Source: an uncultured delta proteobacterium
GTDB lineage: Bacteria > Myxococcota_A > Polyangia > Haliangiales > Haliangiaceae
Direction of reading: 5' to 3'
Assembly (NCBI GenBank): GCA_963743525.1
Contig: CAVUQH010000024.1
Location: 193,763 to 257,762, forward strand
DNA: 64,000 bases
Under the pieces are notes generated by a model. The model saw only the letters and a list, made by a program, of their open reading frames with translations, was not told the origin of the DNA and did not search any database. Both the position numbers and the translations under genes were made by a program. This document shows, one piece after another, positions 32 to 11,759 of this stretch; the first letter of the stretch is position 1; every line of letters begins with the position of its first letter.

Positions 32-2638
32 CTACTCGCCAGCGAGCTGACCAAGCTGCTGCGCGGAACGCGCGCCGGCTCTGATGGCATCTGCATCCGG
101 CAGCCAAATGGCGAACGATGCGCCGCCGTTAACGCCATCACCCACGCTTATGCTGCCACCGTGCTCTCGCACGATTCGGCGCGCAACCGACAACCCCAGA
201 CCAGACGTGCTGCCATCGTCTCCGGTCGTGTAGAAGGGATTGAAGATCCGCTCGCGCTCGGCCGCCGGAACGCCGGGTCCATCGTCTTGCAGCTCGAGCC
301 CGATTCCGCCACGATCGTGATCCCACGTGCGAACGTGAACCTGACACTGACCACCGCTGGCTCGCCTTGCATTGATGAAGAGGTTGAGCAGCACTTGCTC
401 AATCTGACCGGGGCGCAAGGAGACGAGGCGAGTCGCCGCCAGCTCCAGCTCGATGGAGATGCCCACACCGCGGACCCCTACCAAGGTGCAAACACGATGC
501 ACTACCTCGTTGATACTTGCCGGCTCCAGGCCACCCGGACCACCGCCTCGCGAGAACCGGCGCAAACCGTCGATGACCGCGCGCACCCGCCGGACTCCCT
601 CCGTGCCCGCTGCGTACGCCTGCTCGATTTCCCCACGCAAGACATCGGCTGCTTCCGCGTCCGAGTCGGGGAGCTCACTCAGCTCGTGGGCAGATTCGCT
701 CATCACGTATAGAGCGTTCTGGAGGAATCCCAGGGGATTGAGGATTTCGTGTGCAGCGCCCTCCGCCAACACCAGCAGCGACCGTTCTCGCTCTTCGATC
801 GCACTGTCGGCGTAGTGCTCCTCGCGCTCCAAGAGCCGCTGAACAGCTGCTCGCAGCTCCGAAGGCTGAAACGGCTTGGTCAGATAGATGTCCGCCCCAC
901 CCTCTCGGCCCTCGACCTTGTCTACTGGCGCCCCCCGCGCCGTCAGCAGAATGACGGGAATCCGCGCGGTATCCTGGCCGGCGCGTAGCTCGCGTACGAG
1001 ATCGAAGCCACTCATGCGCGGCATCATTACATCCGAGATCACCAGGTCTGGGTGCTTGGCTCGTGCCGCATCGAGTCCAGCCTGGCCATCTGCGGCGGTC
1101 ATGACCTCGTACCGTGAGGACAGCAGGGCAGCGAGAAACTGCAGCATGTCGGCACTGTCTTCGACGATGAGCACCCTCTCTGAACGTTCCGGGTTGCGCA
1201 CTCGGGGGGCGAGCCGTCGCTCCGTCGCCGCATCGACATGCAGCAACCGGTACTCATCGCGCTGGCGAAGAGCATGGTGCCACTCGGTCATGCCAGCAGC
1301 AGTAGTTCGGCGTTCATCGCTCACGAGACGCTCGACCTGACGACGTTCGATGGCGTGCTCGGGAACCGCCGGTTCGATGGGCAGAGTGAGCCGAATCGTC
1401 GTCCCCTGCCCTACCTTGCTCTGCGCATCCGTCCGACCACCGTGCAATTCGACGATCTCGCGGGCCAGTGCCAGACCGATTCCCGTACCGCCATGTCTAC
1501 GAGTTCCGGTTGGATCAACCTGATGAAAACGCTCGAAGATGCGAGCCAGGTGCTCTGCAGGAATTCCTTCTCCGGTGTCGATCACCTCGACCACAACCGA
1601 ATCATCGTCCCGCCGGAGGGAGAGCTCGACACTGCCCGCAGGACCCGTGAACTTGACCGCGTTGGCGAGCACGTTGAGCAGAACCCGCTCGATCTGATCC
1701 GGATCACACGTGATCAGTGGAACTTCTCCCGTTTGCGTCTGCGAGACCGAGATGTTCTTGCGAGCTGCGAGCGGTTTGATCCGCTCGACCAGATCCGCCG
1801 CGAGCTCGGCAACGTCGGTTTTCTGTAGACGCAACCGCATGCCCGCTGACTCCAGCCTGGACAACTCGAGCAGATCATCGACCAACCTGAGCAATCGCAG
1901 GGCGTTTCGCCGAGCCAGGCGCAACTGGTTTCGCACGGACTTTTCCAGGTTCTGGTCTTCCAGCAGCGCTTCGACCGGGGCCAGGACGAGCGTCAGAGGC
2001 GTGCGAAGCTCGTGACTGATGTTGGCGAAGAACTGGTTCTTGGCCCGATCGAGATCCTTCAATCGCTGTCGATCGTAGAAGGCTCGCTCCTCCAGGCTGT
2101 AGCGAAAGCCCATCCCTACGACCACGATGCCCAGGGTCGAAGCGACGATCAGCTGATGGGTAACGAAGTAGAAGAGGTTGTGCAGCGAGGCGCCAAACAG
2201 CGCGGGCAGGGCAAACGGCAGGTACACTCCGATTGCGAACACAATCGCGGCTCGACGAGGCGCCAGCGCAACGTAGCCGGCCGTGACGACGGCTAGCAGA
2301 ACGCCGGCGTAGTAAGGCGACCCATAACCCTGCCCGACGAAAACCATCACCTCGATCGACCAGGCAACCGTCGCTGCGGACAACAGGATGGTCGTCATCG
2401 CGTTGCGACGCATGAACTCGCGCGAAATCCGAGACAACACGAGCACGAGAATCGACAGCGCTTGGAGGAACACCCGCAGCGCGAGGAGCAACTCCAGATG
2501 CTCGTGAAACACGAACCGGTCGACGACGCCGAAGATCGGATTCAGAAAGAACAGAACCCCGGCGAACAGCAACACCCCCTGCAGGTTCTTGTCCTGGACC
2601 TCCTGGTCGAAAGACTCGTGCGTAGCTTCCGCTTTCAT
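32..2638 (-). CDS. Hybrid sensor histidine kinase/response regulator: membrane N-terminus, HisKA+HATPase, receiver domain, then a second HisKA-like/HATPase module
   Basis: 868-aa ORF. Hydrophobic N-terminus with about 6 TM segments. H-box 'FFANISHELRTPLT', HATPase G-boxes, receiver 'VLIVEDSADMLQF...DLVISDVMMPRMSGFDLVRELR', and a second kinase-like core '...HEILNPL...GLGLSVARRIVREHGGSISV'. Its start codon overlaps the stop of the upstream gene (atga), so the two are probably co-transcribed. Confidence 0.85.
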   Translation of the reverse strand: MKAEATHESFDQEVQDKNLQGVLLFAGVLFFLNPIFGVVDRFVFHEHLELLLALRVFLQALSILVLVLSRISREFMRRNAMTTILLSAATVAWSIEVMVFVGQGYGSPYYAGVLLAVVTAGYVALAPRRAAIVFAIGVYLPFALPALFGASLHNLFYFVTHQLIVASTLGIVVVGMGFRYSLEERAFYDRQRLKDLDRAKNQFFANISHELRTPLTLVLAPVEALLEDQNLEKSVRNQLRLARRNALRLLRLVDDLLELSRLESAGMRLRLQKTDVAELAADLVERIKPLAARKNISVSQTQTGEVPLITCDPDQIERVLLNVLANAVKFTGPAGSVELSLRRDDDSVVVEVIDTGEGIPAEHLARIFERFHQVDPTGTRRHGGTGIGLALAREIVELHGGRTDAQSKVGQGTTIRLTLPIEPAVPEHAIERRQVERLVSDERRTTAAGMTEWHHALRQRDEYRLLHVDAATERRLAPRVRNPERSERVLIVEDSADMLQFLAALLSSRYEVMTAADGQAGLDAARAKHPDLVISDVMMPRMSGFDLVRELRAGQDTARIPVILLTARGAPVDKVEGREGGADIYLTKPFQPSELRAAVQRLLEREEHYADSAIEERERSLLVLAEGAAHEILNPLGFLQNALYVMSESAHELSELPDSDAEAADVLRGEIEQAYAAGTEGVRRVRAVIDGLRRFSRGGGPGGLEPASINEVVHRVCTLVGVRGVGISIELELAATRLVSLRPGQIEQVLLNLFINARRASGGQCQVHVRTWDHDRGGIGLELQDDGPGVPAAERERIFNPFYTTGDDGSTSGLGLSVARRIVREHGGSISVGDGVNGGASFAIWLPDADAIRAGARSAQQLGQLAGE

Positions 2639-4092
2639 GAGGGTGATTCGATATAGACCAGGTAGGTGTAACCGGTCCGATCCAGCTTGACCTCGACGGA
2701 CGCCGCGTCGAGATGGTCTGCGAATGCCTTCATCTCCTGCTCACTCCGGTACAGCAGGGTCCAGTCGAGCAGGAACTCCGGCAACCAACCAATACCCGGA
2801 TTGTCCGCCATGTTCCCGACAACGAGCGTCCCCCCGGGTCGGAGCTGAGCATACAACATGGAAAAGATCTGGTTGGCGATCGGATCGGCGAGGTAGTCAA
2901 CCAGCCCCGCGCTGTAGACCAGGTCCTGCCGGGGCAAGCCGTCCAGAACCGTGGGGTCCTTCAACAGCTGAGCAAACGCGATGTGCAGACACTCCACACG
3001 CGAGCCGTTGTCGAGTTGGGCGATCAGCGGATAGACCTGATTGTACGCATACGACAATGCCGCTTCGTCCTGATCGATGAGGACCACGTGGAGGGGATGT
3101 GTCGGCGAGTGAGCGCGAAGAAACGTTTCGACCTCCCGCGCCGGCCCAGACCCCAAACTCGCGATTCGCACCGGCTCGTCCCGACTCCTGTGGCTCTGCT
3201 CGGCCTTGGCGACTGCGTGGGCGATTGCCTCCGCCAACATTTCCATCCGCGGGATCACGCACGCGGCCAAAGGGAACCGGGTGATGAGGCGGTGCAGCAG
3301 CTTTCCGTATGCGGTTTCGCCCTCCAGCCGCTGGGCGTAGAAAGCGTTCATCAAGATGAAATCACCGGGGTAACCGAGGGGCTTCTGATAGCCTCGGTAG
3401 CCGGCAACCCCCTCCTGGAACTCTGGGGTGAGGAGGACCTCGGTGAGATGTTTCGTCGCCCGATGTGATGGCGTTCCTGCGATGAGTGTCGATATCAGCT
3501 CTTCTGCCCGGTGCCGGAGTGGCGTCCACTCGGTCTCCAGATGCTCGTAGTAGTGGGACAGCATCTTCTCCGGAATCTCACCGTGGCCATCGGCCCGCGA
3601 GCTCTTCTGGGTCCGTTCGCAGACCGAACGGTAATAGCGGAGCACGAAGAGGATTTCGGCGCACAAGGCTCGATACGCGGTAGGCACGAGTCCTAGCTCG
3701 CGGGATGCTCCATGCTGCAAGTCACGCTGGAGCGACAGCGCATTGTGCTGGTCTACCAGTCGAGGGATGTCCAGGAAGCCCCGTACGAGCCGGACGCCGA
3801 CGACGAAGCCCCGCGGCGCCATCTCCAAGCGCGAGATGACGCCTTCTCCCTGATAGACCTCCGCTGCGTCGAGGCGCAGTGACAACGAGCACGATGCTCC
3901 AATCTCGAACGCATTGTGTTTTGCGAAGAACGAGAGGCCGTTCATGCTCAGGTCGCGAAGCTCTTGCGGCCCGTCGTCCACCAACAAGGTCGCCGGAACG
4001 CGCGTGATCAGATCGCGGGCGCGGTAGCGCCGACTGCGAAAGAAGATCTTCGAGCCCCGGGATCCACTGAGCTCGTCGTAGGCTTGGCTCAT
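2635..4092 (-). CDS. PilZ domain - class I SAM-dependent methyltransferase fusion protein
   Basis: 485-aa ORF. N-terminal PilZ-like segment 'RARDLITRVPATLLVDDG...DLSMNGLSFFA'. C-terminal Rossmann MTase motif 'IASLGSGPAREVETFL...VVLIDQDEAAL'. Start and stop overlap the neighbouring genes, which suggests an operon. Confidence 0.6.
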   Translation of the reverse strand: MSQAYDELSGSRGSKIFFRSRRYRARDLITRVPATLLVDDGPQELRDLSMNGLSFFAKHNAFEIGASCSLSLRLDAAEVYQGEGVISRLEMAPRGFVVGVRLVRGFLDIPRLVDQHNALSLQRDLQHGASRELGLVPTAYRALCAEILFVLRYYRSVCERTQKSSRADGHGEIPEKMLSHYYEHLETEWTPLRHRAEELISTLIAGTPSHRATKHLTEVLLTPEFQEGVAGYRGYQKPLGYPGDFILMNAFYAQRLEGETAYGKLLHRLITRFPLAACVIPRMEMLAEAIAHAVAKAEQSHRSRDEPVRIASLGSGPAREVETFLRAHSPTHPLHVVLIDQDEAALSYAYNQVYPLIAQLDNGSRVECLHIAFAQLLKDPTVLDGLPRQDLVYSAGLVDYLADPIANQIFSMLYAQLRPGGTLVVGNMADNPGIGWLPEFLLDWTLLYRSEQEMKAFADHLDAASVEVKLDRTGYTYLVYIESPS

Positions 4093-4096
4093 GTAG

Positions 4097-4951
4097 CTAG
4101 GCGATCTTCTGGAGGCTGATTCGGTAGAGAACGAAGATGCCGTACTCGTAGCCTTTGATCACGGCCGCGAGGAAGTGCTCCCAGGTAGCCACTCTCTCCT
4201 CCCCAACCAGCGCGACCGCTTCGTCTCGATGCATCTTGAGGCGTCGTAGCCACTCTCGACAGGTCCGAGCGTAGTGGTCCCCGTGTTCCACGACCGTGTC
4301 GGCGCGGAATAGCCGATCCGACGCCTCGACAATCTGTGAGAGACGCGGCATGTCTGACTCGGGAAAGACCTTGGCAACCGCGCTGCTGGCGACGAACTTG
4401 CCGGTGCCGTAGCCCATGGTCTGGACGGTCAACCAACCGCCATCCCGAAGCCACGATCGACACCGCTCGAAGAATGACCGGTAAATGTCGATGCGCTCAT
4501 CGTCGCTGTGGCTGGGTTTGACGAAATGTTCGATCGCGCCCAGCGAGATGATCGCGTCGTAGGGCTCTGCCGGCTCGTGGTCGGTCCAGCTCTCCAGTCG
4601 GCCTTCGACGGCCGGGCTGTTGGCACGCTGTATGTGCTCGATCTGTGCCTGACTCAGGGAAAGCCCCACAGCCTTGCCGACGCCGTGTTCTTCCGTGAGA
4701 GCGCGCAACATGGAACCCCACCCACAGCCCACGTCCAGGACTCTCCCGGCATTGGCGGCTCGCGCCGAGTGGATGTGGTAGGCGAGCTTCCGCCGCTGCG
4801 CATCCTCCAGGGATTCTTCGGAATCGTCCCCCCACAGCGCACACGAGTAGGTCATGCTGCTATCGAGCCAGAGGCTGTAGAACTGGTTGCTTAGGTCATA
4901 GTGAGCTTGAATGGCAGACGCAGAAGCGCCAGGCTGTTGGTCGATCCCCAT
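4097..4951 (-). CDS. Cyclopropane-fatty-acyl-phospholipid synthase family SAM-dependent methyltransferase
   Basis: CFA-synthase/mycolic-acid MTase-like motifs 'VLDVGCGWGSMLRALTEEHG...DAIISLGAIEHF'. ATG at 4951 chosen as start (MGIDQQP...). First gene of a three-gene minus-strand operon. Confidence 0.75.
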   Translation of the reverse strand: MGIDQQPGASASAIQAHYDLSNQFYSLWLDSSMTYSCALWGDDSEESLEDAQRRKLAYHIHSARAANAGRVLDVGCGWGSMLRALTEEHGVGKAVGLSLSQAQIEHIQRANSPAVEGRLESWTDHEPAEPYDAIISLGAIEHFVKPSHSDDERIDIYRSFFERCRSWLRDGGWLTVQTMGYGTGKFVASSAVAKVFPESDMPRLSQIVEASDRLFRADTVVEHGDHYARTCREWLRRLKMHRDEAVALVGEERVATWEHFLAAVIKGYEYGIFVLYRISLQKIA

Positions 4952-5026
4952 GTCGTGAGCTGATCTCCTTCTGGGTCGCGAGTGTGCCTCGCCGCATCCG
5001 CCCCCGACCAAAGCGACCCTTGCTAT

Positions 5027-5085
5027 GGATAGTAGTACAGGTGCTCCATTTTGGTGCACCCCTCCTGTACTCGACCACCCGCATC
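5027..5085. promoter_or_regulatory. Low-GC nested-palindrome element upstream of the CFAS/PilZ-MTase/hybrid-kinase operon
   Basis: 'tagtagtacaggtgctccattttggtgcacccctcctgtactcga': outer inverted repeat GTACAGG...CCTGTAC enclosing the self-complementary GGTGCACC and ggtgc...gcacc. It lies 80-130 nt upstream of start 4951 in an otherwise ~70% GC sequence. Confidence 0.4.
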
Positions 5086-5353
5086 AAGACTTTAACCGTG
5101 GGAGTCGCACATCCGCGCACACGGTCAGCTCCGGACAAAGGAGGCCCGTCGGCGACTTCGCCCACGGGCCTCGGTGTCGAGTAAAAGGAGCTAGGGCTAC
5201 GGAAGAGTGTCGCCGTCCTCCGAGCTGGAGTGACTCTCGATGGAGTCGCTGGCCATTGTCACCGACATGTGTGCCAGTGCTGTCGCGCCATCCGGGAGTG
5301 GGGCCCGGGGCGCAGCGAGTGGTGGCGTGGGCTCGGGCGGCGGGGCCGGCGGA

Positions 5354-6265
5354 TCAGCGGAGGCGAGTGGCGGCTTCGCCGTAGCGCCACAGCAGGCCGC
5401 GGGGGCTGGTCAGGCCGCCGGTGCCGGGGGCGATGAACAGGCCGGCGTAGCTGCCGTCGGGATGGATGCGGTGGATGCCGTTGGCGGCGGCCACGTAGAG
5501 GTCGCCGCTGGGGCCGAAGGTCAGCGCGACCGGGCCGTCGAGGACGCCGGGCTTGTCGAAGAAGACGTCAACCAGGGTGCGGTCGAGGGGGGCGTAGCGG
5601 AGGATGCGCGCGCGGTAGTAGTCGACCACGTAGAGCAGCTGGTCGGGGCCGAAGGTCAGGCCGGTGGCGTCGTCGAGCTCGGCCTGGTCGCCAAAGCGAT
5701 CGATCAGGGTCCCCTCTTCCGGGTTCCACACCTGGATCTGGCCGGGCGCGTTGGGGTCCCACGAGGTGGCGATGAACAGCTCGCCCTCGCTGCCGAAGGC
5801 GAAGCCGTGGGGGCGGCGCACGACGTCGCGGCCGAACGCGCGCACCAGGGTGCCGTCGCCATCGAGGACGACGACGTTCTCGGTGTCGTTGCCCAGGACG
5901 AAGAGCTGGGAGCCGTGGAAGATCGAATCGACCGGCTCTTGCAGCCACCACGGGTCGGCGTAGAAGACGCGCGAGAAGCGGCCCGCGGGCTCGTCGTACT
6001 CGAGGATCTGCCCGTGGCCGAAGTTGGCCACGTACATGTGGCCAAGCGGGTCGAAGCGGACGCTGGACGGCCGGTCGATCGGGCCGGGATCGCTGGTGCC
6101 GTCGGGGACGATCGGGCGAACCTCGCGGCCGGCGGTGTCGAACAGCAGCACGGCGTCGGCGGCGCGATCGCTGACCACCAGGGTGGCGTCGAAGACCGGG
6201 CCCGGGTCGGCGGTACGGCGCACTCGGACCGGCGGGCACGGAACCGGCGCGGGCTCGTCGGCCAT
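5354..6265 (-). CDS. NHL-repeat beta-propeller protein, probable lipoprotein
   Basis: Repeated NHL-like units (e.g. 'LLFDTAGREVRPIV', 'GHMYVANFGHGQILEYD', 'DQLLYVVDYYRARILRY', 'GDLYVAAANGIHRI'). A lipobox-like peptide 'VTSIVAACAALAAGC' is encoded in-frame immediately upstream of the annotated ATG, but there is no canonical start codon there. The true N-terminus is therefore uncertain. Confidence 0.6.
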   Translation of the reverse strand: MADEPAPVPCPPVRVRRTADPGPVFDATLVVSDRAADAVLLFDTAGREVRPIVPDGTSDPGPIDRPSSVRFDPLGHMYVANFGHGQILEYDEPAGRFSRVFYADPWWLQEPVDSIFHGSQLFVLGNDTENVVVLDGDGTLVRAFGRDVVRRPHGFAFGSEGELFIATSWDPNAPGQIQVWNPEEGTLIDRFGDQAELDDATGLTFGPDQLLYVVDYYRARILRYAPLDRTLVDVFFDKPGVLDGPVALTFGPSGDLYVAAANGIHRIHPDGSYAGLFIAPGTGGLTSPRGLLWRYGEAATRLR

Positions 6266-7057: not shown

Positions 7058-8067
7058 ATGAAAGCGATGCTCAGCGTTGGTTCGATCCTGATCCTCGCCG
7101 GCTGCACGGCCGACCTCGGCGGCGGCGCGGGCGGTGGTGGCGGCGGTGGCGGCGGACCCGACGCGGGCCCGGGCGGTGGCGGCAACGCCGACGCGGCGGT
7201 GTGCGATCAGGTCGAGCCGATCCAGATCATCCCGCCGCAGCCGCCGGACCTCTTGCTGGTGGTCAACAAGTCGGGATCGATGGGCGAGAACCTGGGCAAC
7301 GGTCAGCCCAAGTGGACGGTGATGCAGCAGGCGCTGATCGGCATCGTCAACCAGTACGGCGACGGCATCAACTTCGGGTTGATGACTTTCCCCAGCGACA
7401 ACAAGTGCGGGCCGGGCGCTCTTCGCGCGCCGATCGGCGCCGGCAGCGCTGTCGCGATCAGCGCCGCGCTGCTGACCACCGTCACCGGACGGCGGCACGC
7501 CGACCGACACGACCATCCAGGCGGCGATGTCGTACTACCAGTCGATCCCGACCAACCCCAACGGTCGGTTCGTGCTGCTCGCGACCGACGGCCAGCCCAA
7601 CTGCGGCGACCCCAACGACTCGTCGGTCCCGACCGTCACCCAGTCGATCGCCGCCATCGGCGCGCTCGCCGGCGCCGGGGTCAAGACGTTCGTGCTCGGC
7701 TTCGGCGACGCCGTGGTCAGCGATCCGACGACGCTGCAGGCGATGGCGCAGGCGGGCCAGACCGGGATGTACTACGCGGCGACGTCGCCGGCGCAGCTCG
7801 ACGCCGCCCTCGACGCGATCGCCGGACAGATCTCGGTGCCGCCGTGCACGATCGGACTGGTCACCACTCCCGACGACCCGGCGAAGCTGGGGGTGTTCTT
7901 CGACGGCACCGCGGTGCCGCGCAGTCCCGAGCCACGCCGACGGCTGGGATTACGACCCCGGGACCAACAGCGTGAACCTGTACGGCGACGCCTGCAGTCA
8001 ATTGCAGTCGGGCGCGGTCGGCGCGGTAAAGGTCAACTACGGCTGTGGTGGGCCGCTGGTCCTGTAG
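7058..8067 (+). pseudogene. von Willebrand factor type A (vWA) domain lipoprotein, interrupted by two frameshifts
   Basis: Signal/lipobox 'MKAMLSVGSILILAGCTADLGG' followed by a Gly-rich linker. vWA MIDAS region 'LLLVVNKSGSM' in frame 2, 'PDGGTPTDTTIQAAMSYY...RFVLLATDGQPN' in frame 0, and C-terminus '...AVPSHADGWDYDPGTNSVNLYGDACSQL...' in frame 1. Frame switches are near 7480 and 7930. Confidence 0.6.
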
Positions 8068-8111
8068 CGTCATGTAGGAAAAGGTCCGACCATCCTGGAA
8101 ACCGGTAATGC

Positions 8112-8648
8112 TTGTCACCGACTACAGGCGTGCTATTTGTCCGGAAGACGATGCCGGACGGACGCCGCCAATTCTCCCGGGTCGCAGTCCACATTCCCGC
8201 GCTGCTCGAGCTGCCTGGTCGCGCCAAGTCTGACGGTCGACGGCTGCCAGCGCAGCGCGTCCACGCCAACGTCACGTCGCTGTCGCCGGGTGGACTGCGT
8301 CTCGCGACCAACGAACAGTACGAGCTGCCGCTCGGTGCGTCGGCCCACGTGAAGATGACGCTGACGCTCGACGGCGAGACGCTGTCGCTGCCGGTGGCGC
8401 TGCTGTGGTGCCGGCACAACGACGGCGAGAGCTCCGACTTCGGCGGCCGCTTGCTGCTCGAGATCGCCGACGCCGACATCGCGGCAGTTCTACGCCCGCT
8501 GGATCGTCTCGCGGCTCACGACGCAACCGGCGGCGCTGGCTCGCGGCTGACCGCGTCGCCCAGCGCGGAACCTCCAGCGGCACCAGCGGCGCGTCGAGCG
8601 CGGCGCGGAGGATGTCGCCGAACGAGCCCTCGGCGCCCAGCCGGGTGA
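8112..8648 (+). CDS. PilZ domain-containing protein
   Basis: N-terminal 130 aa resemble a PilZ fold ('RRQFSRVAVHIPALLEL...LSPGGLRLATNEQ...LLWCRH'). The 3' end overlaps the convergent ABC1 kinase gene, so the true stop is uncertain. Confidence 0.45.
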   Translation: MSPTTGVLFVRKTMPDGRRQFSRVAVHIPALLELPGRAKSDGRRLPAQRVHANVTSLSPGGLRLATNEQYELPLGASAHVKMTLTLDGETLSLPVALLWCRHNDGESSDFGGRLLLEIADADIAAVLRPLDRLAAHDATGGAGSRLTASPSAEPPAAPAARRARRGGCRRTSPRRPAG

Positions 8649-9871
8649 GCACCGCGTGCAGCCCCCACTGCAGGCGCGTCTGCCAGATCCACGCCGGCGG
8701 AATCGCCAGGCGCCGGAGGTTGGGGTTGGAGGTACCGTTGATAGCGCGCGCCCTCGCGCAGGTGCTCGGCGGTGAAGCGAAAGTGGGCGCTGCGATACGG
8801 CGCCAGCTGATAGCACAGCATCTCCCAGTGGAGGTCGAAGTCGAAGCGCTTGGGCTTGGGCACCATGCCGGTGGCGAGCACGGCGTCGCGGAACAGCTCG
8901 CGGCGGTCGTCGATGACGATGCGGGTGAGCCTGCGGTCGGCCTCGAGGTAGTCGGGCTCGAACCGGCGCACGCAGCCGAAGTCGAGGAAGACGACGCGGC
9001 CGCGGCCGGGAAAGAGATAGTTGCCCGGGTGCGGATCGGCGTTGATGAGGCCGTGGGCGTACATCGATCGGTACGGGAAGCGGACCAACACCTGCGCCAG
9101 CGCGTTGCGCTCTTCGGCCGACGCGCCGTCGGCGACGTCGTAGAAGCCGATGCCGTCGTGCCACGCCGTGGTCAGCACCGGTCCGCGGGTGCGCTCGGCC
9201 AGCACCTCGGGCACGATCACCGCCGGGTCGCCGGCGAACGCGCGGGCGAACGCCGCCTGGTGGGCGCCCTCGCGCGGGTAGTCGCACTCCTCGACCACCC
9301 GATCGCGCAGCTCGTCGGCCAGCGCCGGACCGTCAACGGCGGTGAAGACCGAGGCCATGCGCGACAGGCGGCGGAGGCGCGAGAAGTCGGCCTCCATCGT
9401 CTTGCGCACCTGCGGGTACTGCACCTTGACCGCGACCCGGCGGCCGGCGACGCGGGCGCGGTAGACCTGACCAATCGACGCGGCCGCGACCGGCCGCGGA
9501 TCGAAGTCGTCGAACAGCGCCTCGACCGGGGCGCCGAACGCCTCCTCGATCACCTGGGCCATGGTGGCGAAGGCGACCGGCCTGGCCCCCTGCTGCAGCG
9601 TGCGCATCGCCGCCTGGGTGCCCTCGGGCAGGGCGCCGTCCATGTACGACAGCACCTGGCCGATCTTCATCGCCAGCCCCTTCATCGAGTCGAGCTCGCG
9701 GGCCATGCGCTCGCCGATCTTCTCCTCGGTCTCGCCCTCCTCGCGCCGCAGCAGGCGCCGCCCGGCCAGACGCGCCGCCGAGCCGGCGATGCGCGCGGTG
9801 GCCGCGGCGCGACGGCCCCAGCCGTGCTTGATCCCCTCGGGGGCGTCGTCGTCGCGACCGTCGTCGGCCAT
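8516..9871 (-). CDS. ABC1/UbiB-family atypical protein kinase
   Basis: ABC1 family signatures 'MKIGQVLSYMDGALPEG', 'AAASIGQVYRARVAGRRVAVKVQYPQV' and 'YAHGLINADPHPGNYLF'. Start placed at ATG 9871 (MADDGRDDD). Confidence 0.8.
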   Translation of the reverse strand: MADDGRDDDAPEGIKHGWGRRAAATARIAGSAARLAGRRLLRREEGETEEKIGERMARELDSMKGLAMKIGQVLSYMDGALPEGTQAAMRTLQQGARPVAFATMAQVIEEAFGAPVEALFDDFDPRPVAAASIGQVYRARVAGRRVAVKVQYPQVRKTMEADFSRLRRLSRMASVFTAVDGPALADELRDRVVEECDYPREGAHQAAFARAFAGDPAVIVPEVLAERTRGPVLTTAWHDGIGFYDVADGASAEERNALAQVLVRFPYRSMYAHGLINADPHPGNYLFPGRGRVVFLDFGCVRRFEPDYLEADRRLTRIVIDDRRELFRDAVLATGMVPKPKRFDFDLHWEMLCYQLAPYRSAHFRFTAEHLREGARYQRYLQPQPPAPGDSAGVDLADAPAVGAARGAHPAGRRGLVRRHPPRRARRAAGAAGGSALGDAVSREPAPPVAS

Positions 9872-9950
9872 GGGCGCATCGTAGGCGCTGTTGCCACCTG
9901 TTTCCATCCCTGAAACCGACCGGAAACAAGCCACTGATACCGTGCTCTCC

Positions 9951-11246
9951 ATGAACGAGCCAGCGCTGGCGGGCCTCCGCATCCACGTCCACGCGGCCGG
10001 CGATCGGGGAATCGACGGCATCCTCCGACTGATCGAAAAGTCGGCGCAGAACGCGCCGCTGGAGGACAAGCTGCAGGCGATGTGCACCGACGCCTCGCGC
10101 ATCGCGGACGTCGCCGTGGTCAGCGTCTACGTGCGCGAGCGCAGCGCCGACGGCGACCAGCTGGTGATGCGCGGCAACGTCGGCTTCCCGTCGGGATCGA
10201 TCGGCGTCGCGCGGCTGCGCATCGGCGAAGGCATCACCGGCTTCGTCGCCGAGTGTCTGCGCCCGGTGTCGGCGGCGGTCGCTCACAGCGACACCCACTA
10301 CAAGCACATCCCCGGGCTGGGCGAGGAGCGCTTCCCCGCCTTCCTCGGCGTGCCGCTGGTCCACGGCGGCGCGTCGGTGGGCGTGCTGGTGTTCCAGCGC
10401 GCCGACTCCGCCGGCTTCGAGCAGGCGGAGGTGACGCTGGCGACCGCGCTGGCGGCGCCGTTCGCGTCGGCGATCGATCTGGAGCGGCGGCGCGAGCGCG
10501 GCGAGCCCAACGGCCGCTCGGTCAGGCTGCGCGGCCTGCCGGTGGTGCAGGGCGCGGCGATGGGCCGCGCGGTCACCCTGCCGTCGCTGACCGCGGCCGA
10601 CGACTCGATCGTGCATCCCAGCCCGCGCATGGCCGCGGCCGGCGGGCTGGAGAGCCTGCAGCGCGACCTGGATCGGGTGCGCAAGCAGCTGCGCAAGCAC
10701 CGCGACCCGTCGGTCGAGCGGGCGCTGGCCAACCTGCAGCTGGTGCTGTCCGATCACCGCTTCCGCGACCGCACTCTCGACGAGGTCGAGCGGCTGGGGC
10801 TGGCCGCCGGGCTCGAGCGGGTGGCCCGCGACTACGCCCGCGTGCCGTACGTCGTCTCCGGAACCGGCGACCTGCAAGAGGTCCTCGACGAGCGCGCCCG
10901 CGAGCTGGAAGATCTGTGCGTGCTGATCATGGCGCGCGCCCGCGACCACCGCTTCCTCGCCCGGGGCAACGTGCTCGCCTGCCCGCGCGTCGGCGCCTTC
11001 ACCGCGCTGGCGGCGGCCGCCCGCGGCATCAAGGCGATCGCCAGCGAAGCGCCGGTAGCGCCCGGCTCGCCCGGCGCCGCGATCGCCAGCGCCTGCGGGA
11101 TTCCGCTGGTCGGCGAGGTCATCGGCTTGCTGGCGTGGATCCGCCAGCGCGACCTGATGGTCATCAACGCCCGCGGCGGCGCCATCGACATCAACCCGTC
11201 GATCGCGCAGGTGACCCGCTTTCGCCAGGGCCAGTTGATCGGCTGA
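9951..11246 (+). CDS. PtsP-like protein (GAF domain + PEP-utilising enzyme N-terminal region), truncated and lacking the phospho-His motif
   Basis: The GAF region matches PtsP closely ('GEERFPAFLGVPLVHGGASVGVLVFQRAD' against E. coli PtsP 'KEERFRAFLGVPIIQRRQLLGVLVVQQRE', recalled from memory). An EI-N-like segment 'RLRGLPVVQGAAMGRAVTL' follows. The protein stops at 451 aa without a PEP-binding barrel. The position expected for 'SHAAI' reads 'GAFTALAAAARG', so the catalytic His is absent. Confidence 0.65.
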   Translation: MNEPALAGLRIHVHAAGDRGIDGILRLIEKSAQNAPLEDKLQAMCTDASRIADVAVVSVYVRERSADGDQLVMRGNVGFPSGSIGVARLRIGEGITGFVAECLRPVSAAVAHSDTHYKHIPGLGEERFPAFLGVPLVHGGASVGVLVFQRADSAGFEQAEVTLATALAAPFASAIDLERRRERGEPNGRSVRLRGLPVVQGAAMGRAVTLPSLTAADDSIVHPSPRMAAAGGLESLQRDLDRVRKQLRKHRDPSVERALANLQLVLSDHRFRDRTLDEVERLGLAAGLERVARDYARVPYVVSGTGDLQEVLDERARELEDLCVLIMARARDHRFLARGNVLACPRVGAFTALAAAARGIKAIASEAPVAPGSPGAAIASACGIPLVGEVIGLLAWIRQRDLMVINARGGAIDINPSIAQVTRFRQGQLIG

Positions 11247-11278: not shown

Positions 11279-11759
11279 ATGGTGCGATCTCGCCTCGGCC
11301 TGTCCGCGTTCGCGCTGTCGCTGTGCCTCGCCGCAGCGGCACCCGCGCGCGCCGAGCGGCCGCCGCGCCTGAGCGTCGGCGGCGGCGTCGGCTATCCGCA
11401 CATCTTCCACGGCGACCTGTCGCTGTGGGTGATTCCCTACCTCACCGTCGACGCGCGCGCCTGGTCGATGGCGCTGTTGCCGCGCACCGGCGCCGAGGCG
11501 ACCCTGACCGTGCACGTTCCCGATCGGCCGCTTCGCCGCGCTGGCCACCGCCGGTGGCGGCCTCTGGCGAGAGATCCCCGAGTCGAACCTGGGCGTGGCC
11601 ACCCACGCCGAGAACAGCTCCTACGTGCGCGCCGCCGTCGGCGTCGGCTGGCTCAACCGCCTGCTCGATCTGCGCGCCACCGCCGGGGTGACCACGCGCC
11701 CCAGCGGACACAGCATCACCATCATCGTCACGGTGATGACCCGCTTCCCCCGCGGCTAG
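11279..11759 (+). pseudogene. Small outer-membrane beta-barrel-like protein with one frameshift
   Basis: Signal peptide 'MVRSRLGLSAFALSLCLAAAAPARA' then alternating-hydrophobic strands. The frame is lost near 11520. The C-terminus continues in another frame as '...GVGWLNRLLDLRATAGVTTRPSGHSITIIVTVMTRFPRG*'. Confidence 0.45.

Follow-up and report, generated by a model that had tools for sequence, protein, structure and literature searches.

We analysed a 64,000-nucleotide stretch of contig CAVUQH010000024.1 (positions 193,763 to 257,762), from the GenBank assembly GCA_963743525.1 of an uncultured delta proteobacterium of the Haliangiaceae; this whole stretch, with a G+C content of about 70%, is referred to as the window, and positions are counted from its first letter. 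Two divergent genes lie within 8516-11246: on the plus strand, a gene whose product joins a GAF domain to a module resembling the N-terminal domain (EIN) of Enzyme I (EI) of the phosphotransferase system (PTS), and on the minus strand a gene for an atypical kinase of the ABC1 family. The first of these, the GAF-EIN gene, is the main subject here. It sits in a plus-strand open reading frame (ORF) at 9891-11246, within which the ATG at 9951 was taken as the start because it agrees with the N-termini of homologues, so that the likely true gene spans 9951-11246 (431 amino acids plus stop codon). The ORF, the domain and profile matches and an AlphaFold2 structure characterize its product as a derivative of PtsP, the EI of the nitrogen PTS (EI-Ntr), without the phosphorylatable histidine and without the C-terminal domain of EI (EIC). 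Judged by its sequence, the protein has thus lost catalysis, and yet it has been conserved.

The GAF domain was recognized by Pfam (GAF_2, E 9e-12; GAF, E 2e-11), and the best sequence matches among solved structures were the GAF domains of PtsP from Coxiella (3trc, E 3e-17) and Acinetobacter (3ci6, E 7e-13), in agreement with the original prediction, which had called this domain strongly PtsP-like. The match to the Pfam model PEP-utilisers_N was below threshold (E 2e-4, 22 bits vs a cut-off of 24.4). The only NCBIfam match was the PtsP equivalog PRK11061, covering model positions 8-403 of 748 with a score of 80.8 bits, which did not reach the curated equivalog threshold of 583. A profile of 59 family members aligned with E. 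coli PtsP over residues 7-408 of 748 (hhalign probability 99.5%), and the end of this alignment at PtsP residue 408 bears out the earlier statement that the protein stops after the EI N-terminal domain.

An AlphaFold2 model derived from the same 59-member alignment (mean pLDDT 89.3, pTM 0.63) showed a GAF domain (residues 19-150), a long helix (158-182) and then an EIN topology, in which a two-part alpha/beta subdomain (191-209 and 341-430) encloses a helical subdomain (225-331). On the plus strand, the gene can accordingly be divided into an N-terminal extension (residues 1-18, 9951-10004; pLDDT <50), which is family-specific by conservation and carries the motif V13-H14-x-x-G17-D18; the PtsP-type GAF domain with its long linker helix (residues 19-182, 10005-10496), supported by the Pfam GAF and GAF_2 matches and by PDB sequence and fold matches; the first segment of the EIN alpha/beta subdomain (residues 185-215, 10503-10595), which contains the modelled strands 191-209 and aligns to EI residues 1-25; the EIN alpha-helical subdomain (residues 225-331, 10623-10943), defined by the weak PEP-utilisers_N match, the modelled helices, motifs, conservation and substitution rates; and the second segment of the alpha/beta subdomain, the former His domain (residues 340-431, 10968-11243), with a variable active-site loop and a conserved Trp396. 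A Foldseek search of the PDB retrieved PtsP GAF domains, full-length EI (2wqd, 2hwg) and EIN-Ntr without and with NPr (5t12, 5t1o), all with a probability of 1.00, and with E values of 1e-9 to 1e-11 for the EI and EIN-Ntr structures (2wqd, 5t12, 5t1o).

The loss of the phosphorylatable His, a central claim of the original prediction, was confirmed by alignment. In both MAFFT and hhalign alignments, the position of EI His189 and PtsP His356 is taken by Pro374 (codon CCC, 11070-11072, plus strand), within 'GSPGAAIA', the counterpart of PtsP 'NSHAAIM'; in the MAFFT alignment, 'RTSH189TSIMARSLELP' of EI and 'ANSH356AAIMVRALGIP' of PtsP stand against 'PGSPGAAIASACGIP' of the window protein, so that no intact His is present at the site. 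The place of the loss had been misjudged: the 'AF' that was read as the former His position belongs to 'GAFTAL' (residues 348-353), the counterpart of PtsP 'LSATTL', a segment some 25 residues upstream of the site. A homology search over 5.8 billion proteins returned 604 matches, of which the best 120 were used for the detailed column counts in close members. None of these 120 close members has His in the EI-His189 column, which is filled by Leu (39), Ala (35), Pro (31), Gly (4) and other residues; three of them have a His within two residues of this column, where the alignment is ambiguous. The active-site loop of the family varies in sequence and length and the next helix ('AAIARAAGIPVV') is conserved, which is the pattern expected when a fold is kept and its catalytic loop is freed from constraint. 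Among about 70 truncated representatives at 50% identity, P0176 is the only one with 'SH' at the EI-His189 position. This protein (468 amino acids, with 'SH' in 'VASHIVELARLVGLPIV') comes from a 1969-nt contig of an IMG metagenome and could represent a transitional form between PtsP and the His-less family that has kept its His.

Compared with PtsP, 340 residues are absent at the C-terminus, comprising the linker to EIC and the phosphoenolpyruvate (PEP)-binding TIM barrel of EIC (PF02896). Using tblastn with E. coli EI, EIC and the C-terminal half of PtsP as queries, we found no EIC-like sequence in any frame of the window, including the alternative downstream frames in which a continuing PEP-binding domain had been considered, and no EIC remnant in 80 related loci; the GAF-EIN part was the only region matched. 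A frameshifted or split gene was therefore rejected. With both the His and EIC lost, the protein can neither autophosphorylate from PEP nor pass on a phosphoryl group by way of the canonical site.

The original prediction had also argued against a missing C-terminal frame from the closeness of the next gene. There is indeed an ORF encoding a signal peptide whose start, at 11279, lies 33 nt past the stop codon of the GAF-EIN gene, so that the position was correctly given; as evidence for truncation, this ORF is weak, because the region is not conserved in a relative with 93% amino-acid identity (locus L008), which has short direct repeats there instead, and because the ORF looks frameshifted. 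The real evidence for truncation is the family-wide length of about 430 amino acids. The small ORF itself (11279-11755, plus strand) has a clear signal peptide (MVRSRLGLSAFALSLCLAAAAPARA), a beta-barrel-like sequence and no Pfam match. Its frame remains open without a stop to 12052, into a convergent beta-helix gene, and from about 11500 the +1 frame reads a C-terminus like that of an outer-membrane protein ('...HSITIIVTVMTRF'); the whole resembles a gene for a small outer-membrane protein in which the reading frame seems to shift near 11500.

The architecture and the His loss of the window protein proved common to its orthologues, whose comparison had been proposed as a check: more than 200 homologues of about 430 amino acids share them. 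The best 120 homologues measure 379-479 amino acids (median 431), with 41-96% identity over at least 87% of the query. An exhaustive profile search over 1.84 billion cluster representatives gave about 70 clusters (50% identity) with the family length and a full-length alignment, at about 210-600 bits, and the first canonical full-length PtsP (P0259, 762 amino acids, adjoining glutamine synthetase) appeared only at 205 bits. We define the His-less GAF-EIN family as proteins of about 380-480 amino acids with GAF plus EIN, no His at the EI-His189 column, and the residues Arg270, Tyr295, Cys323 and Trp396; the window protein shows all of these features, including the four marker residues. A scan of GTDB with one genome per species found a relative in 470 genomes, the 80 best of which supplied the related loci (about 1.1-1.2 Mb of DNA). 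These 80 are all metagenome-assembled genomes (MAGs), labelled Kofleriaceae, Haliangiales, Polyangiales, Sandaracinaceae, Polyangia, Myxococcales or delta-proteobacteria, with Polyangia labels in the majority; every locus bears a different isolate or bin name, and nothing indicated that any genome has two or more copies. When clusters were looked up and a second homology search was run with a Polyangiales member as query, only environmental sequences came back, and no cultured carrier.

The members are labelled 'GAF domain-containing protein' by NCBI, 'phosphotransferase system enzyme I (PtsP)' by IMG and once 'phosphocarrier protein kinase/phosphorylase'; the latter two labels are over-annotations. 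Full-text literature searches found no published description of a truncated, His-less PtsP (GAF-EIN) family. The family of these uncultured myxobacterial MAGs is conserved and uncharacterized, and homologous to the known PtsP.

Seen alone, a PtsP homologue that lacks its His and ends after EIN looks broken, and IMG labels members of the family 'PtsP', so that the gene had to be considered as a possible relic in decay, a pseudogene cut short, or a normal full-length ptsP broken by an assembly or frameshift error. The substitution pattern speaks against it. The ratio of nonsynonymous to synonymous substitution rates (dN/dS, Nei-Gojobori) relative to the 93%-identical L008 (dS 0.25) came to 0.15 over the full gene; the GAF domain had a ratio of 0.27, the EIN part 0.09 and the helical subdomain 0.05, and this strong purifying selection on the His-less EIN module rules out a pseudogene. 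The same length and the same loss in over 200 homologues from about 70 clusters and independent assemblies, the lack of an EIC remnant at any of the loci searched, and the confident AlphaFold2 model point the same way; the chance that the gene is such a remnant or artefact is next to negligible, and the pseudogene is effectively refuted by dN/dS together with the family-wide conservation. 'Degenerate', as the protein had been called, does not apply in the sense of decay, since its EIN-like half is more constrained than the GAF domain. In mean pairwise identity within the family, the GAF domain is the most conserved region, with 57% vs 39-47% for the EIN parts. The His-less, EIC-less state was shown to be ancestral to a large family of proteins of about 430 amino acids and to be kept by purifying selection.

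The conserved residues of the family fall partly into motifs that are common to PtsP and partly into features of its own. The GAF domain keeps the blocks 'GEGITG', 'PGLGEE-FPAFLGVP' and 'GVLVLQR', which it has in common with the PtsP GAF domain. The helical (alpha) subdomain, which is the docking element for HPr and NPr in EI and EI-Ntr, has a net charge of about -2 in the family (range -6 to +3), compared with -2 in PtsP and -14 in EI; its motif 'LSDxRFRxR' ('LSDHRFRDR' in the window protein) parallels 'LSDTRLRRE' of PtsP, the EI counterpart being 'LEDEELEQE', and Arg270, found in 118 of the 120 members, is Arg in PtsP and Glu in EI. Two EI-wide residues, Asp82 and Arg126, are retained as Asp268 and Arg315. 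By these sequence criteria, the subdomain resembles that of EI-Ntr more than that of the sugar EI. Family-specific features are the conserved motif 'VARDYARVPY' with Arg293 and Tyr295 (the latter in 119/120 members); an insertion of about 10 residues after this motif, between the third and fourth helices of the subdomain; an invariant Cys323 in the helical subdomain (codon 10917-10919), where EI and PtsP have Gly; Trp396 in the alpha/beta subdomain (117/120); and a nearly invariant Cys45 in the GAF domain (codon 10083-10085). The conservation of Tyr295, Cys323 and Trp396 points to a function that was retained but altered. Cys323 is probably buried, as it replaces the helix-packing Gly of EI and PtsP. 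The 'VH..GD' motif of the N-terminal extension, which has no equivalent in E. coli PtsP, includes a His14 that is present in 112 of the 120 close members and in 47 of 77 diverse representatives.

His14 and the two cysteines raise the question of whether the protein might still take part in phosphotransfer, being phosphorylated in trans by another EI or by a kinase at a non-canonical residue (His14 or a conserved Cys). The frequency of His14 among the close members and its position in a flexible N-terminal segment would suit this explanation, as would the nearly invariant Cys45, the invariant Cys323 and the precedent of DhaM, which carries an EIN-like relay domain without EIC. His14 is, however, less frequent among the diverse representatives, Cys323 is the residue that the alignment suggests to be buried, the varying sequence and length of the canonical active-site loop indicate relaxed constraint, and no conserved PTS or kinase partner is encoded nearby; we consider phosphorylation in trans quite improbable.

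A comparison with known systems places the protein close to PtsP/EI-Ntr (E. coli b2829; PRK11061; COG3605), with which it shares the N-terminal GAF signature ('GEGITG', 'IPGLGEE-F-AFLGVP', 'GVLV-Q'), the long linker helix, a two-subdomain EIN module collinear over PtsP residues 7-408, the EI-Ntr-type charge of the alpha subdomain and the 'LSDxR(L/F)R' motif. Unlike PtsP, the family has neither the phosphorylatable His (Pro374 in the window protein, in a variable column) nor EIC, and it has acquired the VH..GD extension, a 10-residue insertion in the alpha subdomain and the invariant Cys323 and Trp396. Since the window protein differs from PtsP in the His, in EIC and in the curated score, neither PtsP nor Enzyme I is an appropriate name for it. 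It also resembles the isolated EIN and EIN-Ntr domains (1zym, 2eza, 5t12, 5t1o) in the two-subdomain fold (Foldseek E 1e-9 to 1e-8, target-normalised TM-score 0.52-0.64); those structures, however, are laboratory fragments of full-length enzymes that keep the active His, whereas the EIN-only state of the window protein is a natural, His-less gene product.

Crh of Bacillus, a conserved HPr paralogue that lacks His15, acts as a pure regulator through protein binding. As a PTS paralogue that lost its phosphorylatable His, Crh is the nearest functional analogy to the window protein, though an analogy only: Crh has the HPr fold, occurs in another phylum, is controlled by phosphorylation of Ser46 and shares no homology with the EIN module. 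DhaM and the multiphosphoryl-transfer proteins have an EIN-like relay domain without an attached EIC, and this domain of DhaM provides the nearest architectural analogy; unlike the window protein, DhaM-type domains retain a phosphorylatable His and are fused to HPr-like and EIIA-like domains in phosphorelay proteins.

The explanation that we favour, with some reserve, is that the protein is a non-catalytic, metabolite-gated adaptor or binding protein derived from EI-Ntr (PtsP). A folded EIN scaffold under selection, a drifting catalytic loop and a conserved, remodelled surface fit a binding module better than an enzyme. According to a review, the PtsP GAF domain binds glutamine and 2-oxoglutarate and sets autophosphorylation (PMC13104625). 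Together with the GAF blocks retained in the family, this makes small-molecule sensing a natural assumption. The GAF domain would thus still bind a small metabolite, by analogy with PtsP perhaps glutamine or 2-oxoglutarate; the ligand would alter the binding of a protein partner by the EIN-like module, and the output would be binding or sequestration rather than phosphotransfer. The alpha subdomain, with its EI-Ntr-type charge, 'LSDxRFRxR' and the acquired 'ARDYARVPY' plus insertion, is the candidate partner-binding face. The most economical candidate partner would be a phosphocarrier of the NPr/HPr type, in which case the protein may be a metabolite-gated decoy or adaptor, and a new, lineage-specific partner is about equally possible. 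The original prediction of a GAF sensor without phosphotransfer ability, possibly a regulatory pseudo-enzyme, is supported as probable, the same loss being found across a large family under purifying selection.

Several observations weigh against this explanation. Both the ligand and the partner are putative; the orientation of the domains relative to each other is uncertain in the model, as the pTM of 0.63 indicates; the gene neighbourhood offers no functional hint; and no NPr, HPr, EI or full-length PtsP was found in the window, in the 80 related loci or downstream of rpoN at the Polyangia locus L038. Moreover, the 10-residue insertion and the Arg293/Tyr295 motif lie in what we take, from the EIN:HPr complex, to be the HPr-contacting region of EI, and could equally abolish the binding of a phosphocarrier.

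The protein could instead restrain the nitrogen PTS in a dominant-negative manner, regulating a full-length PtsP or EI encoded elsewhere, either through mixed oligomers formed via the GAF domain and linker or by competing for the phosphocarrier. The GAF domain and linker are its most PtsP-like and most conserved parts, the alpha subdomain carries an EI-Ntr-type charge, and reviews describe the nitrogen PTS as general in delta-proteobacteria, with M. xanthus possessing PTS proteins. However, no full-length ptsP or ptsI was seen in the about 1.1-1.2 Mb of related DNA, nor is rpoN at L038 followed by ptsN or ptsO; in addition, EI dimerises through EIC, as is well established, and EIC is absent here. 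We consider such a dominant-negative role unlikely.

If the protein is a metabolite-gated adaptor, it could represent a new signalling output for a PtsP-type nitrogen/carbon sensor, in which the GAF domain reads glutamine/2-oxoglutarate or another metabolite and the His-less EIN controls a target outside the PTS or sequesters NPr/HPr, without phosphoryl transfer. We put this forward tentatively, and with clear doubt. Were it true, the Enzyme-I scaffold could serve as a pure allosteric adaptor, possibly in lineages otherwise without a PTS. On this reading, a redox or metal signal might also be received through the conserved His14, Cys45 and Cys323. For several bacteria, PtsP has been proposed to have roles independent of phosphorylation, which are hard to disentangle from effects of the phosphorelay. 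In this context, the family provides a PtsP variant that occurs naturally, is widely conserved and is unable to transfer phosphate, and whose Enzyme-I-like half is under strong purifying selection; it offers a clean system for studying phosphotransfer-independent roles of the EIN scaffold and the signals perceived by the PtsP-type GAF domain in myxobacteria. Public labels such as 'PTS enzyme I (PtsP)' may also lead metabolic reconstructions of Polyangia MAGs to infer wrongly a working PTS.

The divergently transcribed neighbour (8516-9907, minus strand) lies in a minus-strand ORF at 8516-10102 and encodes 463 amino acids from an ATG at 9907 or 451 from an ATG at 9871. It matched the Pfam ABC1 model (PF03109, E 6e-57), in line with the original prediction of a divergent ABC1/UbiB-type kinase, and scored 185 bits against the NCBIfam UbiB equivalog (TIGR01982, cut-off 487 bits); by these scores the neighbour is an ABC1-family member, and its identity as UbiB itself cannot be shown. 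It is a neighbour and not a part of the system. The divergent intergenic region (9908-9950) measures 43 nt, or 79 nt if the ABC1 gene starts at 9871, and a promoter scan found no sigma-70-like consensus site in it.

Start codons only 43-79 nt apart on opposite strands, an arrangement kept in the 93%-identical relative, could suggest that the GAF-EIN protein and the ABC1 kinase form a sensor-kinase pair with one regulatory region in common. The adjacency is nevertheless limited to the window and L003/L008: it is absent from the members with 40-50% identity (L004, L005, L006, L090, L091 and L092), all-against-all ORF clustering of 81 loci gave no ABC1 neighbour cluster beyond the window and L008, and the upstream neighbours elsewhere differ by lineage (a VWA protein, a flavoprotein, an unannotated protein, an ECF sigma factor, a RibD_C protein or an amino-acid permease). 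A partnership with the ABC1 kinase, very improbable in our estimate, was rejected by this comparison of genomic contexts, and the kinase provides no clue to function. A conserved operon partner was likewise rejected, as no neighbour occurred in more than 19 of the 81 loci; none of these shared clusters includes the window, and the recurring neighbours are more suggestive of gene order shared within a subclade than of a functional link. The GAF-EIN gene behaves as a stand-alone unit, and its pairing with ABC1 is incidental.

Linkage to PTS genes was not seen either. The 64-kb window contains no HPr, NPr, EIIA-Ntr, EIIA-Glc or RapZ, and none of these, nor EIC, was found within 6 kb of the family gene at any related locus; the family gene shows no linkage with glnA, rppH, lysC or PTS genes. 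L038, from a Polyangia MAG, is the only locus with rpoN nearby (58-1221, about 5 kb upstream of the family gene). There, rpoN is followed at 1984-5078 by RibD_C, zinc-dehydrogenase, PTPS and glycosyltransferase genes and not by the hpf-ptsN-rapZ-ptsO set typical of proteobacteria; a link to an rpoN-ptsN-ptsO operon was rejected, since the intervening genes are not PTS genes. This layout hints that the usual nitrogen-PTS operon is possibly missing, or located elsewhere, in these lineages.

At the Kofleriaceae locus L079, the family gene lies between a gene for a pentapeptide-repeat protein (4880-5758, plus strand) and a convergent ImuB-like gene (7208-8740, minus strand), identities that were assigned by eye from the translations; ImuB/DnaE2-like genes occur near the family gene in some Kofleriaceae. 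On the other side of the ABC1 kinase gene in the window, an ORF for a PilZ-domain protein (8112-8648, plus strand; Pfam E 1e-7) extends into the 3' end of the convergent kinase gene, and the close relative L003 likewise has a 100-amino-acid PilZ gene that overlaps its ABC1 gene by about 58 nt.

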